Of a stretch of DNA of 4,766 bases, positions 552-4,766 are shown in pieces (position 1 is the stretch's first letter; each line of letters begins with the position of its first letter). The position numbers and the translations under genes were made by a program. The notes under the pieces are model-generated. The model saw only the letters and a program-made list of their open reading frames with translations, was not told where the DNA came from and did not search any database. Origin of the DNA: a virus (Duplodnaviria; Heunggongvirae; Uroviricota; Caudoviricetes); IMG/VR virus record IMGVR_UViG_3300026367_000039, positions 1-4,766 of that record, one strand, 5' to 3'.

Positions 552-1133
552 ATGCCCAAACTCACCGACACCCAGACCATCGTGCTCAGCCGCGCCGCAA
601 CGCGTCCGGGCAATCTTGCGATGCCGCTGCCAGATGGCCTGCACGGCGCCGCCGCCCAGAAGGCCGTGAGCGCGATGATCACGCGCGGCTGGCTGGAAGA
701 GGTCGAAGCCGACCTTCGGCGCGGCGAGCCGCTCTGGCGCGAGACTGGCGATGGTCACGGCACCACGCTGATCGCCACCGAAGCCGGGCTTGCCGCGATC
801 GGGATCGAGCCGGTGGTGGCGACCACGATGAGCAATCTGCGCAAGGCGAAGCTGGAACTGGCCCCGGAGTTGAAAGATGCGTCCGCAGCGCAGACTGATC
901 CTGCCACGCCCAAGCCCGTCGTCCTCCGCGCGGGCACCAAGCAGGCGCAGATCATCGCATTATTGCAGCGCCCCGAGGGCGCATCGATCGGTGAGATCGT
1001 CGCAGCGACCGGTTGGATGGCCCATAGCGCCCGTGGCCTGATCTCGGGCGGCTTGAAAAAGAAGCTGGGACTGCCGATCACTGCCGAGAAAGTCGATCAG
1101 CGCGGCACCGTGTACAAACTGGTTACGGCCTGA
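552..1133 (+). CDS. DUF3489-family protein (putative winged-helix-like DNA-binding protein typical of alphaproteobacterial mobile elements)
   Basis: ATG 552 preceded by a perfect AGGAGG (541-546) at 5-nt spacing. The C-terminal segment TKQAQIIALLQRPEGASIGEIVAATGWMAHSARGLISGGLKKKLGLPI matches my recollection of the DUF3489 signature (LL.R..GAT..EI..ATGW..HS.RG..SG...KK.GL). Strong GC3 bias. Confidence 0.8.
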   Translation: MPKLTDTQTIVLSRAATRPGNLAMPLPDGLHGAAAQKAVSAMITRGWLEEVEADLRRGEPLWRETGDGHGTTLIATEAGLAAIGIEPVVATTMSNLRKAKLELAPELKDASAAQTDPATPKPVVLRAGTKQAQIIALLQRPEGASIGEIVAATGWMAHSARGLISGGLKKKLGLPITAEKVDQRGTVYKLVTA

Positions 1134-1142
1134 TCCCAGCCA

Positions 1143-1355
1143 TTACCGCCAGCGCGCGAACAGTCTGCGCAGCGCGTAGCTGCGCAGCAGGGATATGCCG
1201 ACGAAAACTGCGCCCAGCGCAAGATTGTCACCAAGGCTCGGATGCAGACCGAACCACGGGAACACCACGATCTGCGTGGCGACGGCCAGCACATAGCCCA
1301 GCGCGACATTGCTCGCGGCCTCGATCAGAGACATGCGGCGCGACTGGGCAGTCAT
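1143..1355 (-). CDS. small (70 aa) predicted two-helix membrane protein, translationally coupled to the upstream methyltransferase
   Basis: Start ATG (1355..1353) overlaps the TGA stop of the upstream gene (1354..1352) as ATGA. A strong AGGAGG (reverse complement of 1364-1369) sits 8 nt upstream. Two hydrophobic stretches (ALGYVLAVATQIVVFPWFGL and LALGAVFVGISLL) and a basic C-terminus (RRLFARWR). High GC3. Confidence 0.55.
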   Translation of the reverse strand: MTAQSRRMSLIEAASNVALGYVLAVATQIVVFPWFGLHPSLGDNLALGAVFVGISLLRSYALRRLFARWR

Positions 1356-2725
1356 GCGCGTTTCCTCCTGCGACGCGCCGGGCTCTTGGCCTCAGTTGGT
1401 TCCGCGACACGGTTGGCTGTCCGTCCCGTCGCCAGTTCCCAGCGCCGCACGGCGACGTCGCAGTAAGCGGGGTCCAGTTCCATCGCAAAACACCTCCGCC
1501 CAGCACGTTCGGCGGCCACCAGCTGGGTGCCAGAGCCGCAGAACGGCTCGTAGATCAGGTCGCCCGGATCGGTGAACGCCGTCAGCACTGCTTCAACCAG
1601 CGCCACCGGAAACACTGCGGGATGCGATCCGGCCGCGCCCAGCCCGCCCTTGTGACGCATGATGCGGAACACGCTGTCTGGGATGCGATGACTCTGGATC
1701 GCATTGCCGAAGCCCGTCTTGCGATGGACCGCGCCATCCGCCCCGCGCAAACCCCCACCGCCGAGGATCTCGCCCGCGTGCTTGCTCTCGACCGTCTTGT
1801 GCGGTTTGCGGGGCGCGCGGTTGAAGTGGAAAATGAACTCGTGCGACGGGGCCAGTCGGCCGTTCCAATCGCCCGGCAGGCCGGGCCCCTGATCCCAGAC
1901 ATACCAGCCAAACCGTCGCCAGCCAGATGCGCGCATCCATTCCACCCATCCTTCCCAATAGGGCTGCCATTCGCTGTCGCGATGCACGAGGCCAAGGTTG
2001 ACCAGCAGCTGGGCATCGGCGCAGACCGGTGCGGCAGCGAACACGCCCTGCACCAGCGCATCCCAATCGCCGACCTTTTCCTTGGCCGCGCCGTAGTCGC
2101 GTTGCTGGGCGTAGGGCGGCGAGGTGAACATCAGCGTCGCCGCCTCATTCTGCATCAGCTTGGCGACGGCGGCGGGATCGGTCGCATCGCCACAGCAGAG
2201 CCGGTGCTTGCCCAGCGCCCAGATGTCGCCCGGACGCGTGATAGGTTCAGCGGGCGGTTCGGGGATGGCGTCGGCCGCATCGTCGGAAATCACCGGGCGG
2301 TCGTCGGCGTCTGCCAACAGCGCGTCCAGTTCATCCTCGGGGATCCCGATCAGCCCGAGGTCGAAATCCTCTGCCAGCAGCGCCTGCAATTCCTGCAACA
2401 GCAGCGCTTCGTCCCAGCCGCCCAGCTCGGTTAACTTATTGTCAGCGATGCGATAAGCCCGGCGCTGCGCCTCGGTCAGATGGCCAAGAATGATGACGGG
2501 GGCCTCGGTCAGCCCAAGGTGTGCAGCTGCCAGGACGCGACCGTGGCCTGCGATCAACTCGCCATCAGCCGCGACCAGCACCGGCACGGTCCAACCGAAC
2601 TCGGCCATGCTGGCGGCGATCTTCGCGACCTGATTTGCATCGTGGGTCTTGGCGTTGCGGGCGTAAGGCTTCAGACGGGCAAGGGGCCAGTGCTCGATCC
2701 GGCCCGGCAGGATGGGTGCGTTCAT
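1352..2725 (-). CDS. ParB-like N-terminal domain fused to a beta-class DNA methyltransferase, SPPY variant (possibly N4-cytosine); 457 aa
   Basis: N-terminus MNAPILPGRIEHWPLARLKPYARNAK...DGELIAGHGRVLAAA carries the ParB/Srx-fold G-H-x-R motif. Motif IV is TSPPY, followed by HPAVFP and then the AdoMet motif I EPFCGSGTQ, i.e. beta-class order IV before I. Start placed at ATG 2725 (not the longest-ORF ATG at 2860) because the paralog alignment begins there and it forms an ATGA overlap with the upstream gene's stop. Confidence 0.85.
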   Translation of the reverse strand: MNAPILPGRIEHWPLARLKPYARNAKTHDANQVAKIAASMAEFGWTVPVLVAADGELIAGHGRVLAAAHLGLTEAPVIILGHLTEAQRRAYRIADNKLTELGGWDEALLLQELQALLAEDFDLGLIGIPEDELDALLADADDRPVISDDAADAIPEPPAEPITRPGDIWALGKHRLCCGDATDPAAVAKLMQNEAATLMFTSPPYAQQRDYGAAKEKVGDWDALVQGVFAAAPVCADAQLLVNLGLVHRDSEWQPYWEGWVEWMRASGWRRFGWYVWDQGPGLPGDWNGRLAPSHEFIFHFNRAPRKPHKTVESKHAGEILGGGGLRGADGAVHRKTGFGNAIQSHRIPDSVFRIMRHKGGLGAAGSHPAVFPVALVEAVLTAFTDPGDLIYEPFCGSGTQLVAAERAGRRCFAMELDPAYCDVAVRRWELATGRTANRVAEPTEAKSPARRRRKRA

Positions 2726-3981
2726 GCCGCCAGCCTCTTCGCCTTCAGGTCGGCAAAAGTCTCGCCAGTCTCGACCAGCGCGGCATTGGCGCCGGTGAAC
2801 TGCTGCCAGCGCTCGATGGCGACATCGACGTAAGCCGGGTTCAATTCGATGCCGAAGCACACGCGCCCGGTGGTTTCCGCCGCGATCAGCGTTGTGCCGG
2901 ACCCCATGAAAGGTTCAAACACCGCCTGACCGGGGCTGGAGTTGTTCAGGATCGGCCGGCGCATGCATTCGACCGGCTTTTGCGTGCCGTGCACGGTGGC
3001 AGCGTCCTGATCCTTGCCGGAGATGTGCCACAGCGTGGTCTGTTTCCGGTCCCCGGCCCAGTGGCCCTTGCCGGTCTTCTTCACCGCGTACCAGCAGGGT
3101 TCATGCTGCCAGTGATAGTCGCCCCGGCTGAGAACCAGCCGGTCCTTTGCCCAGATGATCTGCGAGCGCACGTTGAAGCCTGCCGCCACCAGGCTTTCCG
3201 CGACGGTCGCCGCGTGCAGCGCGCCATGCCAGACGTAAGCCACGTCGCCTGGGAACAGCGCCCAAGCCTCGCGCCAATCCGCGCGGTCATCGTTCAGCAC
3301 CTTGCCTATGCGCTTGGTTTTGGCGGCCCCCGCCTGGTTGCGCCAGGATGGGTCATATTCCACGCCATAGGGCGGGTCCGTCACCATCAGCAGAGGGCGA
3401 ATATCGCCCAGCAATCGCCCGACCACATCCGCAGACGTGCTGTCGCCGCAGATCAGCCGGTGCGATCCCAGCTGCCAAAGGTCGCCCACAACCGACACCG
3501 GCGTGACCGGCGGTTCGGGAATGTCATCCTCTCCGTCGGCAGCGCCACCTTCCAACTGGTCCGGGTCGCGCAGCAATGCATCCAGATCCTCGTCGGTGAT
3601 GCCCAGCAGCGACAGGTCGAAATCGTCGGCGAGCAGTCCCGCGATCTCATCGCGCAGCATCGCCTCGTCCCACTCGCCCAGCTCGGTCAATTTGTTGTCC
3701 GCGATCCGGTAGGCGCGGCGCTCTGCCTCGTCGAGATGGCTGAGCCGGATCACCGGCACATCCTTCAGCCCCAGCATGGCGGCCGCCAGCACACGGCCAT
3801 GCCCCGCGATCAGCTCGCCATCGTCGGCCACCATGCAGGGCACTGTCCAGCCGAACTTTGCCATGCTTGCTGCGATCTTGGCAACCTGGTCGGTGCCGTG
3901 GATCTTGGCGTTGCGGGCATAGGGGCGCAGCCGGTCAATCGGCCACGTCTCGATCTGGCTCGGTGCAAAGACCAGGTCCAT
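2722..3981 (-). CDS. ParB-like N-terminal domain fused to a beta-class N6-adenine DNA methyltransferase (CcrM/HinfI-like motifs); 419 aa
   Basis: N-terminus MDLVFAPSQIETWPIDRLRPYARNAK...DGELIAGHGRVLAAA (ParB-like). Motif IV VTDPPYG, then HGTQKP and FEPFMGSGTT, matching the CcrM-type DPPY / TQKP / FxGxGTT pattern in beta-class order. Strong GC3 bias; TGA stop at 2724..2722. Confidence 0.9.
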   Translation of the reverse strand: MDLVFAPSQIETWPIDRLRPYARNAKIHGTDQVAKIAASMAKFGWTVPCMVADDGELIAGHGRVLAAAMLGLKDVPVIRLSHLDEAERRAYRIADNKLTELGEWDEAMLRDEIAGLLADDFDLSLLGITDEDLDALLRDPDQLEGGAADGEDDIPEPPVTPVSVVGDLWQLGSHRLICGDSTSADVVGRLLGDIRPLLMVTDPPYGVEYDPSWRNQAGAAKTKRIGKVLNDDRADWREAWALFPGDVAYVWHGALHAATVAESLVAAGFNVRSQIIWAKDRLVLSRGDYHWQHEPCWYAVKKTGKGHWAGDRKQTTLWHISGKDQDAATVHGTQKPVECMRRPILNNSSPGQAVFEPFMGSGTTLIAAETTGRVCFGIELNPAYVDVAIERWQQFTGANAALVETGETFADLKAKRLAA

Positions 3982-4105
3982 GGGCGGTTCTCATTTGGGC
4001 AGAGCGGGCATGCCAACGGGCGCGGGCAATATGGCCAGCGACAGGATCGGGATCCGCGATGTGGGGGAAAACGAAAGCGCCCGAGAGGGGTGTCATCCGG
4101 GCGCA

Positions 4106-4133
4106 ATTCTTCGATGATTAAGAGGTACGTCAA
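4106..4133 (-). promoter_or_regulatory. candidate sigma70-like promoter for the methyltransferase operon (weak)
   Basis: On the minus strand, TTGACG (reverse complement of 4128-4133), a 16-nt spacer, then AAGAAT (reverse complement of 4106-4111), about 120 nt upstream of ATG 3981. The -10 match is only 4/6, so this is a by-eye guess. Confidence 0.15.
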
Positions 4134-4220
4134 GGGGGCTAGAAATGTCAACCCATTTTATGACGTGGAATCAACGCGTTCTGCGGGTTCGGGGTTTGCG
4201 GGGAAAAGCCGGTGTCGCGA

Positions 4221-4270
4221 GTGGCTTTCCGGGGTGGCTTTCTGGCCAGCGTGGCTACCAAAAAGTGGCT
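4221..4270. repeat. array of four direct GTGGCT(T) repeats (iteron-like or operator-like)
   Basis: GTGGCT at 4221, 4234, 4251 and 4265 (GTGGCTTTCC, GTGGCTTTCT, GTGGCTACCA, GTGGCTTGCC), spaced 13, 17 and 14 bp. About 0.01 occurrences of one oriented hexamer are expected by chance in 50 bp. Confidence 0.6.
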
Positions 4271-4274
4271 TGCC

Positions 4275-4295
4275 TGGATTCCACCGAGGAATCCA
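4275..4295. repeat. perfect 8-bp inverted repeat TGGATTCC-N5-GGAATCCA (candidate dimeric protein-binding site)
   Basis: TGGATTCC (4275-4282) and GGAATCCA (4288-4295) are exact reverse complements around the spacer ACCGA. Each arm contains a GANTC site. It lies immediately after the GTGGCT array. Confidence 0.6.
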
Positions 4296-4351
4296 CTTAG
4301 CCAGAAGGGTGAGACCCTAAGCATTTGATAATGAGTCAAAATTCAGGGTCG

Positions 4352-4397
4352 AGCCACTGGCTTGGCTTCGAAGTGGATTCCCCGGTGAAAAAGCCAC
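4352..4397. repeat. two opposite-orientation copies of the GTGGCT motif flanking TGGCTT repeats and a third TGGATTCC
   Basis: AGCCAC (reverse complement of GTGGCT) at 4352-4357 and 4392-4397; TGGCTT at 4358-4363 and 4363-4368; TGGATTCC again at 4374-4381. Confidence 0.5.
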
Positions 4398-4421
4398 GCG
4401 CTAGCGAAATGCCGCGCTAAG

Positions 4422-4468
4422 CCCCCCCGTATACGGATAGGGCCGGGGAGGAACCATGCTGGGGGGGG
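4422..4468. other. C7 homopolymer, 10-bp perfect palindrome CCGTATACGG, and G8 homopolymer
   Basis: C-tract 4422-4428, palindrome 4427-4436, G-tract 4461-4468. The C and G tracts are complementary and could pair, or could act as slipped-strand tracts. Confidence 0.5.
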
Positions 4469-4486
4469 TCGTGTCGGTTCCGGCCC
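4440..4486. other. GC-rich imperfect hairpin (about 11 bp of stem, 20-nt loop)
   Basis: GGGCCG (4440-4445) pairs with CGGCCC (4481-4486) and GAACC (4451-4455) pairs with GGTTC (4476-4480). No downstream T-tract, so it is not a typical intrinsic terminator. Confidence 0.35.
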
Positions 4487-4535
4487 ATTGCTGCCTTTCG
4501 CCCACCCTCGGTTATGCTGCACTGCGGTCCGCCAT

Positions 4536-4613
4536 TGCGGACTTTCGCTGCAACTGCGAAATATGATGTATAGCGAATTCACAGAGTGCGGACAAAGTTA
4601 GCATTCGCTGCAA
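4536..4613. repeat. two-copy direct repeat module TGCGGAC ... TTCGCTGCAA
   Basis: TGCGGAC at 4536-4542 and 4587-4593; TTCGCTGCAA at 4544-4553 and 4604-4613. The first copy is embedded in the small inverted repeat TTCGC-N7-GCGAA (4544-4560). Confidence 0.5.
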
Positions 4614-4766
4614 GTGCCCCATTGGCTGCTTCGTTGGCGCGAGGGTTCAGTTCTCTGTTACTGTCAAAATCCAGTCTGTAATTTGATCAAGCGAGTGTTT
4701 GGCAAATGCTTTTCGTCCCATCCCCAAATAGATATATTGCAGGTACCAAGGCCATTGAGATGTGAG

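Follow-up and report, generated by a model that had tools for sequence, protein, structure and literature searches.

Packaging sites of other phages

The cos site of phage lambda follows the order cosQ-cosN-cosB with sites bound by gpNu1, and the elements of its cosB are arranged as R3, the IHF site I1, R2 (which is placed opposite to R3 and R1) and R1 (PMC4669245). In phage N15, R3 is located at bp 48-59 from the end, with R3 of lambda being similarly placed (PMC4669245). Cohesive ends have also been defined experimentally for the RcC-cluster phages of Rhodobacter capsulatus (RcBaka, RcKemmy and RcOceanus), these being 11-nt 5′ overhangs (PMC8601537), and the repeats next to the mapped ends are regarded here as a putative cosB. 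Phages P2 and P4 have cos sites which are flanked by variable defence genes (PMC9122126).

The window, which is the whole 4,766-nt stretch of DNA that was analysed, possesses a repeat array that an earlier sequence-only reading had ascribed to iterons, a centromere-like partition site or a multi-site operator. With a probability of roughly 0.7, we consider positions 4221-4468 to be a cos site that belongs to a temperate, lambda-like siphophage or prophage of the Rhodobacterales with a GpA terminase, the repeats being most likely the recognition site of cos rather than a replication origin, a partition site or an operator.

Repeat array of the window

The hexamer GTGGCT is found on the plus strand at 4221, 4234, 4251, and 4265 and on the minus strand at 4352 and 4392, exactly where the sequence-only reading had reported four direct and two reverse copies, with just two further copies in the remaining 4.6 kb of the window. 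The related TGGCTT is present at 4222, 4235, 4266, 4358, and 4363 (plus strand) and at 4391 (minus strand). That the array is dense and non-random was also borne out, as six copies of GTGGCT in 186 bp were reached in none of 2000 dinucleotide-preserving shuffles of the window (maximum 4); with shuffling confined to the intergenic region (n = 2000) the maximum was three per 186 bp.

The unit and the extent of the array required revision. Comparison with more than 50 distinct related phage contigs gives a true repeat unit that is not the hexamer, but a 9-mer, STGG(A/C)TTCC, of which the A-variant copies had been missed: CTGGATTCC (4274-4282) and the inverted GGAATCCAC (4288-4296), which together form an 8-bp perfect palindromic pair, and GTGGATTCC (4373-4381). 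This brings the total to ~9-10 copies; a perfect IHF consensus separates two of the direct copies from the other ~5-6 direct copies and the single inverted one, and the functional unit reaches ~4468, past the end originally given for the array. The two reverse hexamers fared differently; relatives do not conserve the one at 4352, which is probably incidental, whereas the one at 4392 stands in part, with a clear inverted copy GGAATCCAG in some relatives (e.g., L087 and L119).

Between the two repeat clusters, GC content falls to 0.42. The IHF consensus WATCAANNNNTTR situated here is the single match in the window (0.02 expected), and TTTGATAATGAGTC within it is invariant in a 4-way alignment and highly conserved across the family. 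The features of the site and its surroundings are as follows, with occupancy given as the number of 58 aligned sequences of the window family in which a repeat position is occupied and distances counted from the predicted left end.

1352-2725: paralogue of the ParB-N/methyltransferase fusion, next after the gene at 2722..3981
2722..3981, minus strand: fusion of ParB-N and N6/N4 DNA methyltransferase, first gene of the predicted left arm
4104-4077, minus strand: conserved GC hairpin downstream of the promoter, then a T-rich tail (4076-4066), leading into the ParB-N/methyltransferase operon
4133-4106, minus strand: sigma-70-like promoter (TTGACG, 16-nt spacer, AAGAAT) preceding this operon
4165..4173, plus strand: conserved GTGGAATCA between array and promoter; GTGGA(A/T)TCA with GANTC in 58/58 aligned sequences
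4221..4230, plus strand: R-type repeat GTGGCTTTCC, distal direct, family consensus GTGGCTTCC; occupied in 41/58, ~200-209 nt from the end
4234..4243, plus strand: R-type repeat GTGGCTTTCT; occupied in 40/58
4251..4259, plus strand: R-type repeat GTGGCTACC; occupied in 50/58
4265..4274, plus strand: R-type repeat GTGGCTTGCC; occupied in 48/58
4274..4282, plus strand: R-type repeat CTGGATTCC; occupied in 54/58
4288..4296, minus strand: inverted R-type repeat GGAATCCAC; occupied in 49/58, 134-142 nt from the end
4318..4330, minus strand: IHF consensus TATCAAATGCTTA (WATCAANNNNTTR), placed in the AT-rich stretch that separates the two repeat clusters
4362..4370, plus strand: R-type repeat TTGGCTTCG (family consensus GTGGMTTCC); occupied in 57/58, 60-68 nt from the end
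4373..4381, plus strand: R-type repeat GTGGATTCC, putative R3-equivalent; occupied in 57/58, 49-57 nt from the end
4390..4397, minus strand: partial inverted copy AAAGCCAC
4399..4406: near-invariant palindrome CGCTAGCG, lying in the spacer between the repeats and the predicted cut site
4417..4430: predicted cosN (staggered nicks); minus strand reads CGGGGGGGCTTAG, and base 1 of RcBaka aligns to 4429
4431..4468: conserved block on the right-end side (…GGGAGGAACC…G-run), candidate cosQ-like termination element

A scan of the whole window against Rfam (E ≤ 1) gave no match. Both strands are predicted to fold stably (z about -5), which is explained by the inverted repeat copies, and a reading of the array as a single-stranded DNA promoter or a non-coding RNA was dropped on that account. 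In the case of the hairpin downstream of the promoter, covariation gives little information as the stem is nearly invariant.

Conservation in related loci

Queries for the methyltransferase or the capsid retrieved more than 600 IMG/VR stretches. The intergenic region, searched as DNA against the phage collection, gave no match, and neither did an exact lookup of the methyltransferase protein. In upwards of 50 distinct related loci the array keeps its position, orientation and sequence, with essentially one array per element; in loci of 14-21 kb, the 8-mer core TGGMTTCC has five to eight copies at the array as against zero to two elsewhere. Conservation of the noncoding block extends to window position ~4468 in 57 distinct relatives, nearly all of which diverge just beyond, and the part of the block that follows the proximal repeats is a strongly conserved stretch of ~70 bp which ends abruptly at this position. 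The contig ends of relatives are scattered from -33 to +101 nt around 4468 with no single-base pile-up of the kind that would directly support cos, and their sole cluster of shared ends lies exactly at the methyltransferase start codon, which looks like provirus trimming.

The element and its genes

The element belongs to the temperate siphophages and has a terminase of the lambda GpA type. Its packaging and head module consists of a TerL with GpA_ATPase/GpA_nuclease domains, Phage_portal_2, an S49 protease and gpD-like and gpE-like head proteins. PF05876 and PF20454 (GpA-type large terminase) are present in contig L003, which has the gene order of the window and encodes its exact DUF3489 protein. 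The candidate TerS matches phrog_57, “terminase small subunit” (E = 3e-29), with no Pfam or PDB sequence match to confirm a winged HTH of the Nu1 type. Genes for a tail tube, tape measure and tail proteins are present in relatives. The tail-less copy on pRA03 had suggested a capsid-forming satellite (cf-PICI-like), which was ruled out since relatives encode tail genes, and the pRA03 copy is thus truncated.

Genes for the integrase, an AlpA-like protein and an O-like initiator (PF13730, phrog_345) are found on the opposite side of the site. In relatives, the O-like initiator and the array are separated by 0-9 kb of variable cargo. As phage genes resume beyond this cargo, position 4468 is not a phage-host junction, and a prophage-host junction or att site there was also ruled out by the distance of the integrase gene, which is at least 4 kb away where it was located (L002, pRA03).

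Homology to the genome ends of RcBaka

A family profile of the conserved block was searched with nhmmer against the circularised 41.6-kb genome of RcBaka and gave one significant match (E = 3.7e-5, 19.3 bits), with the next best at E = 0.42 and a best score of 14.6 bits for the same profile in 300 shuffled genomes. This match runs from 41606 to 41643 and on from 1 to 32, and so lies across the genome ends. In the profile alignment, the end junction (41643|1) falls between window positions 4430 and 4429, and window 4431-4468 aligns to the right end of RcBaka (GGTTCTTCC…CTATG). The conserved block is in this way homologous to a site which spans experimentally defined cohesive ends. In pairwise BLAST, the RcBaka junction and the window did not give a significant alignment alone (E = 2.2), so this homology rests on the family profile. 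The record of RcKemmy begins in the same register as that of RcBaka, and the rotated RcOceanus record is contiguous across the end junction.

The gene order of RcBaka (left end/cos, ParB-like gene, reverse-strand small genes, terS, terL, gpW, and portal) matches that of the window family, while its right end carries early genes (nuclease and HTH proteins). The large terminase of the element is 60% identical to RcBaka TerL, its TerS is 34% identical to that of RcBaka (E = 1e-30), both belonging to phrog_57, and its ParB-N domain shares 43% identity with gp1 of RcBaka, the product of the first gene after the left end. In RcBaka, three direct GGTTTCCACTT repeats also occupy the stretch 46-82 nt from the left end, with the first at 46-56 and the second at 61-69, the latter matching the position of window 4362..4370. 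Their orientation is the same as that of GGAATCCACTT and CGAAGCCAA on the minus strand of the window, and their distances are nearly so. The CTAGCG of palindrome CGCTAGCG is likewise found in RcBaka.

Predicted organisation of the proposed cos site

The “top” strand of the phage would correspond to the minus strand of the window. The GTGGCT/TGGCTT/TGGATTCC repeats would form cosB, providing binding sites for an HTH-bearing small terminase subunit, TerS, and the predicted order from the cut site is two direct copies (~49-68 nt), an IHF bend (~100-112 nt), one opposite copy and approximately five direct copies. Measured from the predicted end, the direct copies are at 49-57 and 60-68 nt, the inverted copy at 134-142 nt and the remaining direct copies at 148-209 nt. 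TerS may assemble on this array with the assistance of IHF bending and so position the large subunit for staggered nicking at cosN (~4417-4430; minus strand CGGGGGGGCTT(AG)), which would yield 5′-protruding cohesive ends of ~11-13 nt. Packaging would run leftward, taking in the ParB-N/methyltransferase genes, then terS and terL and then the head genes, and 4431-4468, on the far side of the nick, may serve in termination like cosQ.

The layout of these predicted TerS sites, with a copy at the R3 position and one inverted copy, fits a lambda-type cos, as does the presence of an IHF site between proximal and distal R elements. Both terminase subunits are encoded by the element, the large one being of the GpA type, and the site is homologous to the mapped cohesive-end junction of a related phage, RcBaka. 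A lambda-type cos would be expected immediately upstream of the small terminase gene, which is not the case here; in L003, terS is ~5.5 kb from the site, past the methyltransferase genes and a reverse-strand cluster. In RcBaka, terS is at 2215 with the genome end at base 1, and cos is likewise not directly upstream of it. Also counting against a cos site are the copy number, which is far above the three of lambda or of RcBaka, and the IHF consensus, which is kept in most relatives but degenerate in some. The five distal direct copies could be used by another protein or by the adjacent promoter. The ParB-N protein is co-conserved with the repeats to the same degree as TerS, and either could be the protein that binds them.

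If this site is cos, it provides a specific packaging-site location for a large uncharacterised prophage family of the Rhodobacterales (Paracoccaceae) and accounts for a conspicuous array that annotation would otherwise label an origin or parS. A defined cos fragment could also be usable as a cosmid-type or transduction tool in the host bacteria.

Alternative roles of the array

The repeats may instead be a regulatory array for the promoter of the (late) ParB-N/methyltransferase operon, acting through a phage regulator, possibly a winged-helix protein of the DUF3489 type, with looping by IHF. Such a regulatory array, which might share its DNA with cos and yet not be what the terminase recognises, appears unlikely. 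The sigma-70-like promoter is 90 bp from the nearest direct repeat, and most relatives conserve promoter, hairpin and array as a set, with GTGGA(A/T)TCA and its invariant GANTC lying between array and promoter. In L112 and L105, where IS elements split the array, two repeat copies remain beside the promoter, and in L086 a DUF3489 gene adjoins the array. However, the order of promoter cassette and array varies; the cassette is upstream of block and array in L091, a second copy of it is found beyond the cos block in L002 and L091 (an arrangement that the flanks of L043, L076, and L108 resemble by eye), and 1.7-6 kb of cargo intervenes between array and promoter in L097 and L086. The array is in addition ~90-270 bp upstream of the -35 element and not over the promoter, which makes the multi-site operator of the sequence-only reading less likely. 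Conservation is highest (57/58) in the two copies that are most distant from the promoter and closest to the predicted cut site, and the motif was not found at other promoters of the element. In RcBaka, the equivalent repeats are at the physical left end, yet the left arm has no DUF3489 gene, which argues against the DUF3489 protein as the binder that had been suggested.

It is less probable still that the repeats are sites for the ParB-N/methyltransferase proteins, either as a centromere-like or loading site or as methylation targets marking the DNA end. The ParB-N gene is the first after the site in both the window family and the RcC phages, GANTC is ~30-fold enriched in the array (32 per kb, compared with 1.0 per kb elsewhere in relatives), and the RcBaka repeat GTTTCCAC has what we take to be a loose resemblance to the parS half-site TGTTTCAC. 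Against this, the ParB-like part of these proteins aligns only to the N-terminal domain of Spo0J and is followed by an acidic linker and then the methyltransferase domain, with no recognisable HTH, and the loci examined showed no ParA gene, in an element which has an integrase; the centromere-like partition site proposed earlier is disfavoured on these grounds. The C-variant repeats (TGGCTTCC) are also without GANTC, and the methyltransferases are no nearer to CcrM than to other beta-class enzymes, their PDB sequence matches being uninformative on GANTC recognition.

That the repeats are iterons of a replication origin, as had been put forward, or arm-type sites of an att site is very improbable, for although the centre, which is AT-rich and contains the IHF consensus, has direct and inverted repeats around it and the site is downstream of the replication module beside a sharp homology boundary, the gene of the O-like initiator holds four dyad-symmetric (palindromic) iterons of its own, as in lambda (GTGTCCGGAnnTCCGGACAC; L002 10327-10511), which are unlike the array repeats and rule out the array as origin, while the integrase gene is distant, as described, and no tRNA was found in the window.

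DNA methylation and cargo genes

GANTC, a CcrM-type motif that is otherwise depleted in the phage, is present in most of the A-variant repeats (TGGATTCC) and in the conserved sites that flank them. The genes that come first behind the proposed cos encode two DNA methyltransferases fused to ParB-N. From this enrichment and the adjoining methyltransferase genes, function of the proposed cos site could depend on methylation of its array. We regard it as speculative, and on balance doubtful, that the cosB array doubles as a methylation sensor on which binding of terminase or cleavage of cos, and perhaps the adjacent promoter, depend. If so, packaging would be linked through a methylation-sensing array with replication or with the cell cycle of the host, as Dam gates P1 pac, and this would be a lambda-type cos under epigenetic control with the ParB-N/methyltransferase proteins as packaging accessories.

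Defence-gene hotspots flank the proposed cos. The cargo found there in the window family includes restriction-modification and Abi-type genes, helicases and other candidate defence genes, and such cos-adjacent hotspots in marine alphaproteobacterial phages, parallel to those of P2/P4, are places in which defence systems may be mined.

Comparison with known packaging sites

Like lambda, the element has a GpA-type terminase, and the predicted site has short repeats on the left-end side of the nick, with the putative R3-equivalent (4373-4381) at ~49-57 nt from the end, an IHF consensus between proximal and distal copies, one copy in opposite orientation (4288..4296, analogous to R2) and a conserved element across the nick; 5′ cohesive ends would be expected from the RcC relatives. 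Unlike lambda, which has three copies, the window has ~9-10, with a differing repeat sequence, a unit of 9 bp and GANTC sites within the repeats. In lambda, cos is directly upstream of terS, whereas two ParB-N/methyltransferase genes and a reverse-strand cluster intervene in the window family, and no sequence similarity was detected between lambda Nu1 and the window TerS.

The pac site of phage P1 consists of hexamer repeats with Dam sites which flank an IHF site, and methylation controls its cleavage. Like P1 pac, the window has two clusters of short repeats flanking an IHF site, many of the repeats contain an adenine-methylation motif (GANTC in this case) and phage methyltransferase genes are nearby. 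The two differ in that P1 uses PacA/PacB and headful packaging as opposed to a lambda GpA cos terminase, and not every window repeat has the methylation motif. With P2 and P4, the window family shares highly variable cargo directly beside cos, between replication and packaging genes. These are of another lineage, the window family being Rhodobacterales phages with lambda-like heads and RcGTA-like tails, and its cargo is set apart from that of P2/P4 by occurring on both sides of the cos block.

The RcC phages resemble the window in having repeats that end in TCCACTT, with the same orientation and a similar distance from the end, along with a homologous cut-site block, TerS, TerL and ParB-N protein and the same gene order on both sides. 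Unlike the window, they have just three direct repeats (GGTTTCCACTT, spacing 13) and, as judged by eye, no IHF-type centre, inverted copy or distal array, and their ParB-like gene is unfused, whereas ParB-N of the window is fused to a methyltransferase. Given these fewer repeat features, the RcC phages may be considered to possess a putative “simple” cosB as against the “complex” cosB predicted for the window, and if so the window family and the RcC phages form a natural “complex versus simple cosB” pair for the evolution of small-terminase specificity.

Repeat array and conserved block

The array of GTGGCT/TGGCTT-type repeats upstream of the ParB-N/methyltransferase genes is a real, conserved and functional-looking feature. 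Rather than an origin, centromere or operator, it is best explained as the site (cos) from which a lambda-like prophage packages its DNA (probability roughly 0.7). The sequence-only reading had reported GTGGCT at 4221, 4234, 4251 and 4265 on the plus strand and at 4352 and 4392 on the minus strand, at a density beyond chance, and both points were confirmed. Just two further GTGGCT copies occur in the window, with additional TGGCTT copies at 4358 and 4363. None of 2000 window shuffles that preserved dinucleotide content reached six copies in 186 bp (maximum four), and 2000 such shuffles of the intergenic region gave at most three. The copy at 4352 is not conserved in relatives. Alignment with 57 distinct relatives shows the true repeat unit to be the 9-mer STGG(A/C)TTCC, with conserved positions.

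Features of the window
In the window, plus strand: phrog_8020 gene
552-1133, plus strand: DUF3489 gene
1143-1355, minus strand: DUF7220 gene
1352-2725 and 2722-3981, minus strand: two tandem paralogous ParB-N/N6_N4-methyltransferase genes
3982-4766: non-coding region
4066-4133, minus strand: promoter cassette, with conserved GC hairpin (4104-4077) followed by a T-rich tail
4133-4106, minus strand: sigma-70-like promoter (TTGACG, 16-nt spacer, AAGAAT)
4168, 4277, 4289, 4333 and 4376: GANTC sites
~4221, 4234, 4251, 4265 and 4274, plus strand: direct repeat copies (family alignment)
4288-4296, minus strand: inverted repeat copy (family alignment)
4318-4330, minus strand: IHF consensus
4362-4370 and 4373-4381, plus strand: direct repeat copies, each in 57 of 58 sequences
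4390-4397, minus strand: inverted repeat copy, partly conserved (family alignment)

The 8-mer core TGGMTTCC occurs five to eight times at the array and zero to two times in the remainder of each 14-21-kb locus, and the array is a single-copy cis site. Between the repeat clusters lies an AT-rich centre that is highly conserved across the family, its core TTTGATAATGAGTC being invariant in a four-way alignment, and it holds the sole window match to the IHF consensus WATCAANNNNTTR, with 0.02 expected. Past the repeats there is a strongly conserved block, CCCCGGTGAAA..CGCTAGCGAAATGCCGCGCT..C7-G-YATACG..GGGAGGAACC..G-run, which stops at ~4468, after which the sequence differs in almost every relative. 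In the remainder, 4469-4766, GC content falls to ~40-50% and all six frames have stop codons; a few relatives share part of it, L038 to 4560 and L029 and L065 to 4500, and the window stops within it. On the other side, a 32-nt G-rich insertion (…GGTTCGGGGTTTGCGGGGAAAAGCCGGTGTCGC…, 4187-4218) separates a conserved GTGGAATCAAC site from the first repeat; it is complete only in the JGI contig L003, several other relatives having shorter, different insertions there.

Five of the six copies of the CcrM-type motif GANTC in the window fall within 4168-4376, and that at 4168 is kept in all 58 aligned sequences. Across the 57 relatives the array has a median of 32 GANTC sites per kb, and the remainder of each locus has 1.0. 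Since phage methyltransferase genes adjoin this GANTC-rich array, methylation is a putative influence on packaging or on the promoter.

Gene content and relatives

The upstream region aligns with L003, with the Paracoccaceae replicons pRA03 of Roseicitreum antarcticum and p_IV of Paracoccus aminovorans, and with more than 100 IMG/VR viral contigs. L003 encodes a DUF3489 protein matching that of the window exactly, beyond which is a lambda-type head module comprising a TerS candidate, a PhD/PIN pair, a GpA_ATPase/GpA_nuclease TerL, a gpW-sized ORF, Phage_portal_2, an S49 protease and gpD-like and gpE-like proteins. In this closest relative the PhD/YefM antitoxin and PIN-domain toxin genes sit between terS and terL (6892-7535). 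Tail tube, tape-measure and tail genes come further along in relatives. Away from the head genes, the array is followed first by 0-9 kb of variable cargo and then by a phrog_9306 gene, a lambda-O-like initiator (HTH_36, phrog_345), a VRR-NUC nuclease, an AlpA/excisionase-like HTH protein and a P4-type integrase. With lambda-type head, tail, O-like initiator and integrase genes present, the element is a temperate siphophage, and the array lies at the seam between its early/replication genes and its packaging genes. The pRA03 copy (L126, NZ_CP061501.1 53902-83542) seems to be a defective prophage that has been truncated; the portal region is in fragments, tail genes are absent, and its last genes (capsid, DUF6441) are followed by plasmid backbone (resolvase, repABC).

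Both flanks of the cos block are cargo hotspots, with IS elements among the cargo. The hypervariable cargo past 4468 is rich in defence-type genes, including type ISP and type I R-M systems, an LlaJI-type enzyme and a C5 methylase, along with an AIPR Abi protein, DUF262, UvrD-type/DEAD helicases and AAA_13/AAA_23 ATPases. Cargo is found in pRA03 (L126 4728-14833) and in loci L048, L059, L068, L075, L086, L093, L097, L098, L101 and L118. A second insertion point, between array and promoter, carries umuDC-like genes (L097) or a 1671-aa helicase (L086).

Comparison with RcC-cluster phages

By TerL, the nearest cultured phages are those of the Rhodobacter capsulatus RcC cluster (60% identity). Their ends were mapped as 11-nt 5′ overhangs, from sequencing reads that stop at particular bases (PMC8601537). 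In the linear record of RcBaka (MW677509), the first gene after base 1 encodes a ParB-like nuclease-domain protein (164-811), followed by four small opposite-strand genes and then terS, terL, gpW-like and portal genes; early genes (nuclease, HTH proteins, methylase) occupy the right end. The genes around the array of the window have this order. RcBaka gp1 has 43% identity (E=2e-27) to the ParB-N domain of the window methyltransferase, and RcBaka TerS has 34% identity (E=1e-30) to the L003 TerS candidate, both of the latter matching phrog_57 'terminase small subunit'. In RcBaka and RcKemmy the gene at first position is a ParB-N gene lacking a methyltransferase domain, and the tblastn matches also include several unrelated phages, e.g. 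AmM-1 and Vibrio phages, that have ParB-methyltransferase genes at their genome ends.

An nhmmer profile built from the 58-sequence alignment of window 4360-4468 was searched against the circularised RcBaka genome and gave a single significant match (E=3.7e-5, 19.3 bits; next best E=0.42), which joins 41606-41643 to 1-32 and so straddles the physical ends. The best score in 300 dinucleotide-shuffled genomes was 14.6 bits. As pairwise BLAST of the RcBaka junction against the window was not significant, homology of the block to the RcBaka cos rests on the profile. The profile alignment pairs RcBaka base 1 with minus-strand window position 4429, and the RcBaka overhang CGGGGCGGAAG with CGGGGGGGCTT(AG) of the window. 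RcKemmy starts in the same register. The RcOceanus record (L209/L210, MW677520.1) starts at the ParB-like start codon, with the cos junction internal and contiguous near its right end, and has apparently been rotated with respect to the physical ends.

Proposed mechanism and alternative functions

In the proposed model, TerS dimers would gather on the repeats, aided by bending of the DNA by IHF, and position the GpA-type TerL to nick cosN at ~4417-4430, leaving 5′ overhangs of ~11-13 nt. Packaging would initiate from the ParB-N/methyltransferase end of the genome, and the conserved stretch 4431-4468, aligned to the RcBaka right end, may act in termination as a cosQ-like element. The main doubt is whether all copies serve TerS; the five distal ones may instead belong to the neighbouring promoter or to a different protein. 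Co-conserved with the site, the ParB-N protein may itself be a binder, and a packaging-related role for its domain is conceivable.

The sequence-only reading had proposed a multi-site operator, iterons or a centromere-like site. Against an operator, the promoter lies 90 bp from the nearest repeat and the order of cassette and array varies, L091 having cassette, block, array and then methyltransferase, and L097 and L086 having cargo between array and promoter. The cassette itself resembles a promoter-proximal terminator, e.g. that of an antitermination-controlled late promoter; its hairpin stem is almost invariant, making covariation uninformative. In several relatives it has a second copy on the far side of the cos block (L002 ~9020-9110, L091 ~1830-1925). 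Transposase genes interrupt the distal array in L112 (IS3-family, rve; 2858-3787) and L105 (IS110-family; 3015-4088), where two repeat copies remain beside the promoter; these prophages are probably packaging-defective.

Iterons are disfavoured because the O-like gene holds repeats of its own, in the related locus L002 (9798-10814, minus strand) four dyad-symmetric copies of GTGTCCGGAnnTCCGGACAC at 10327-10511, the arrangement of the lambda ori and likely the element's true origin of replication. In sequence the STGGMTTCC array is unrelated to these copies, and variable cargo lies between it and the initiator. A centromere fits poorly with ParB-like parts that align to the Spo0J N-terminal domain only and are fused to methyltransferases, with no HTH detected in these proteins and no ParA gene seen. 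Against binding of the array by the DUF3489 protein, also suggested earlier, no DUF3489 relative is present in the RcBaka left arm.

Comparison with known cos sites

Cos sites are of a kind already well known, and the array as a proposed packaging site can be set against several of them. The RcBaka left end (…CTAGCGTGGCACGTTTTTTTTGGGTTTCCACTTAAAGTTTCCACTTTGGGTTTCCACTTT…) has three direct repeats 46-82 nt in, with a spacing of 13, and the minus strand of the window (…CGCTAGCGCGTGGCTTTTTCACCGGGGAATCCACTTCGAAGCCAAGCC…) has copies in the same orientation 49-57 and 60-68 nt from the predicted end. R3 of N15 is at bp 48-59, and lambda R3 is similar in position (PMC4669245). Lambda cosB has the order R3, IHF site I1, R2 in opposite orientation and R1, and is bound by the winged-HTH small subunit (PMC4669245). 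Counting from the predicted end, the window has the IHF consensus at 100-112 nt, an opposite-orientation copy at 134-142 nt and direct copies at 148-209 nt; with the IHF, inverted and distal direct elements so placed, this anatomy is that of a 'complex' cosB whose set of R elements is expanded; the RcC phages have a 'simple' cosB. The cargo hotspots find their parallel in P2 and P4, in which hotspots also adjoin the cos sites (PMC9122126).
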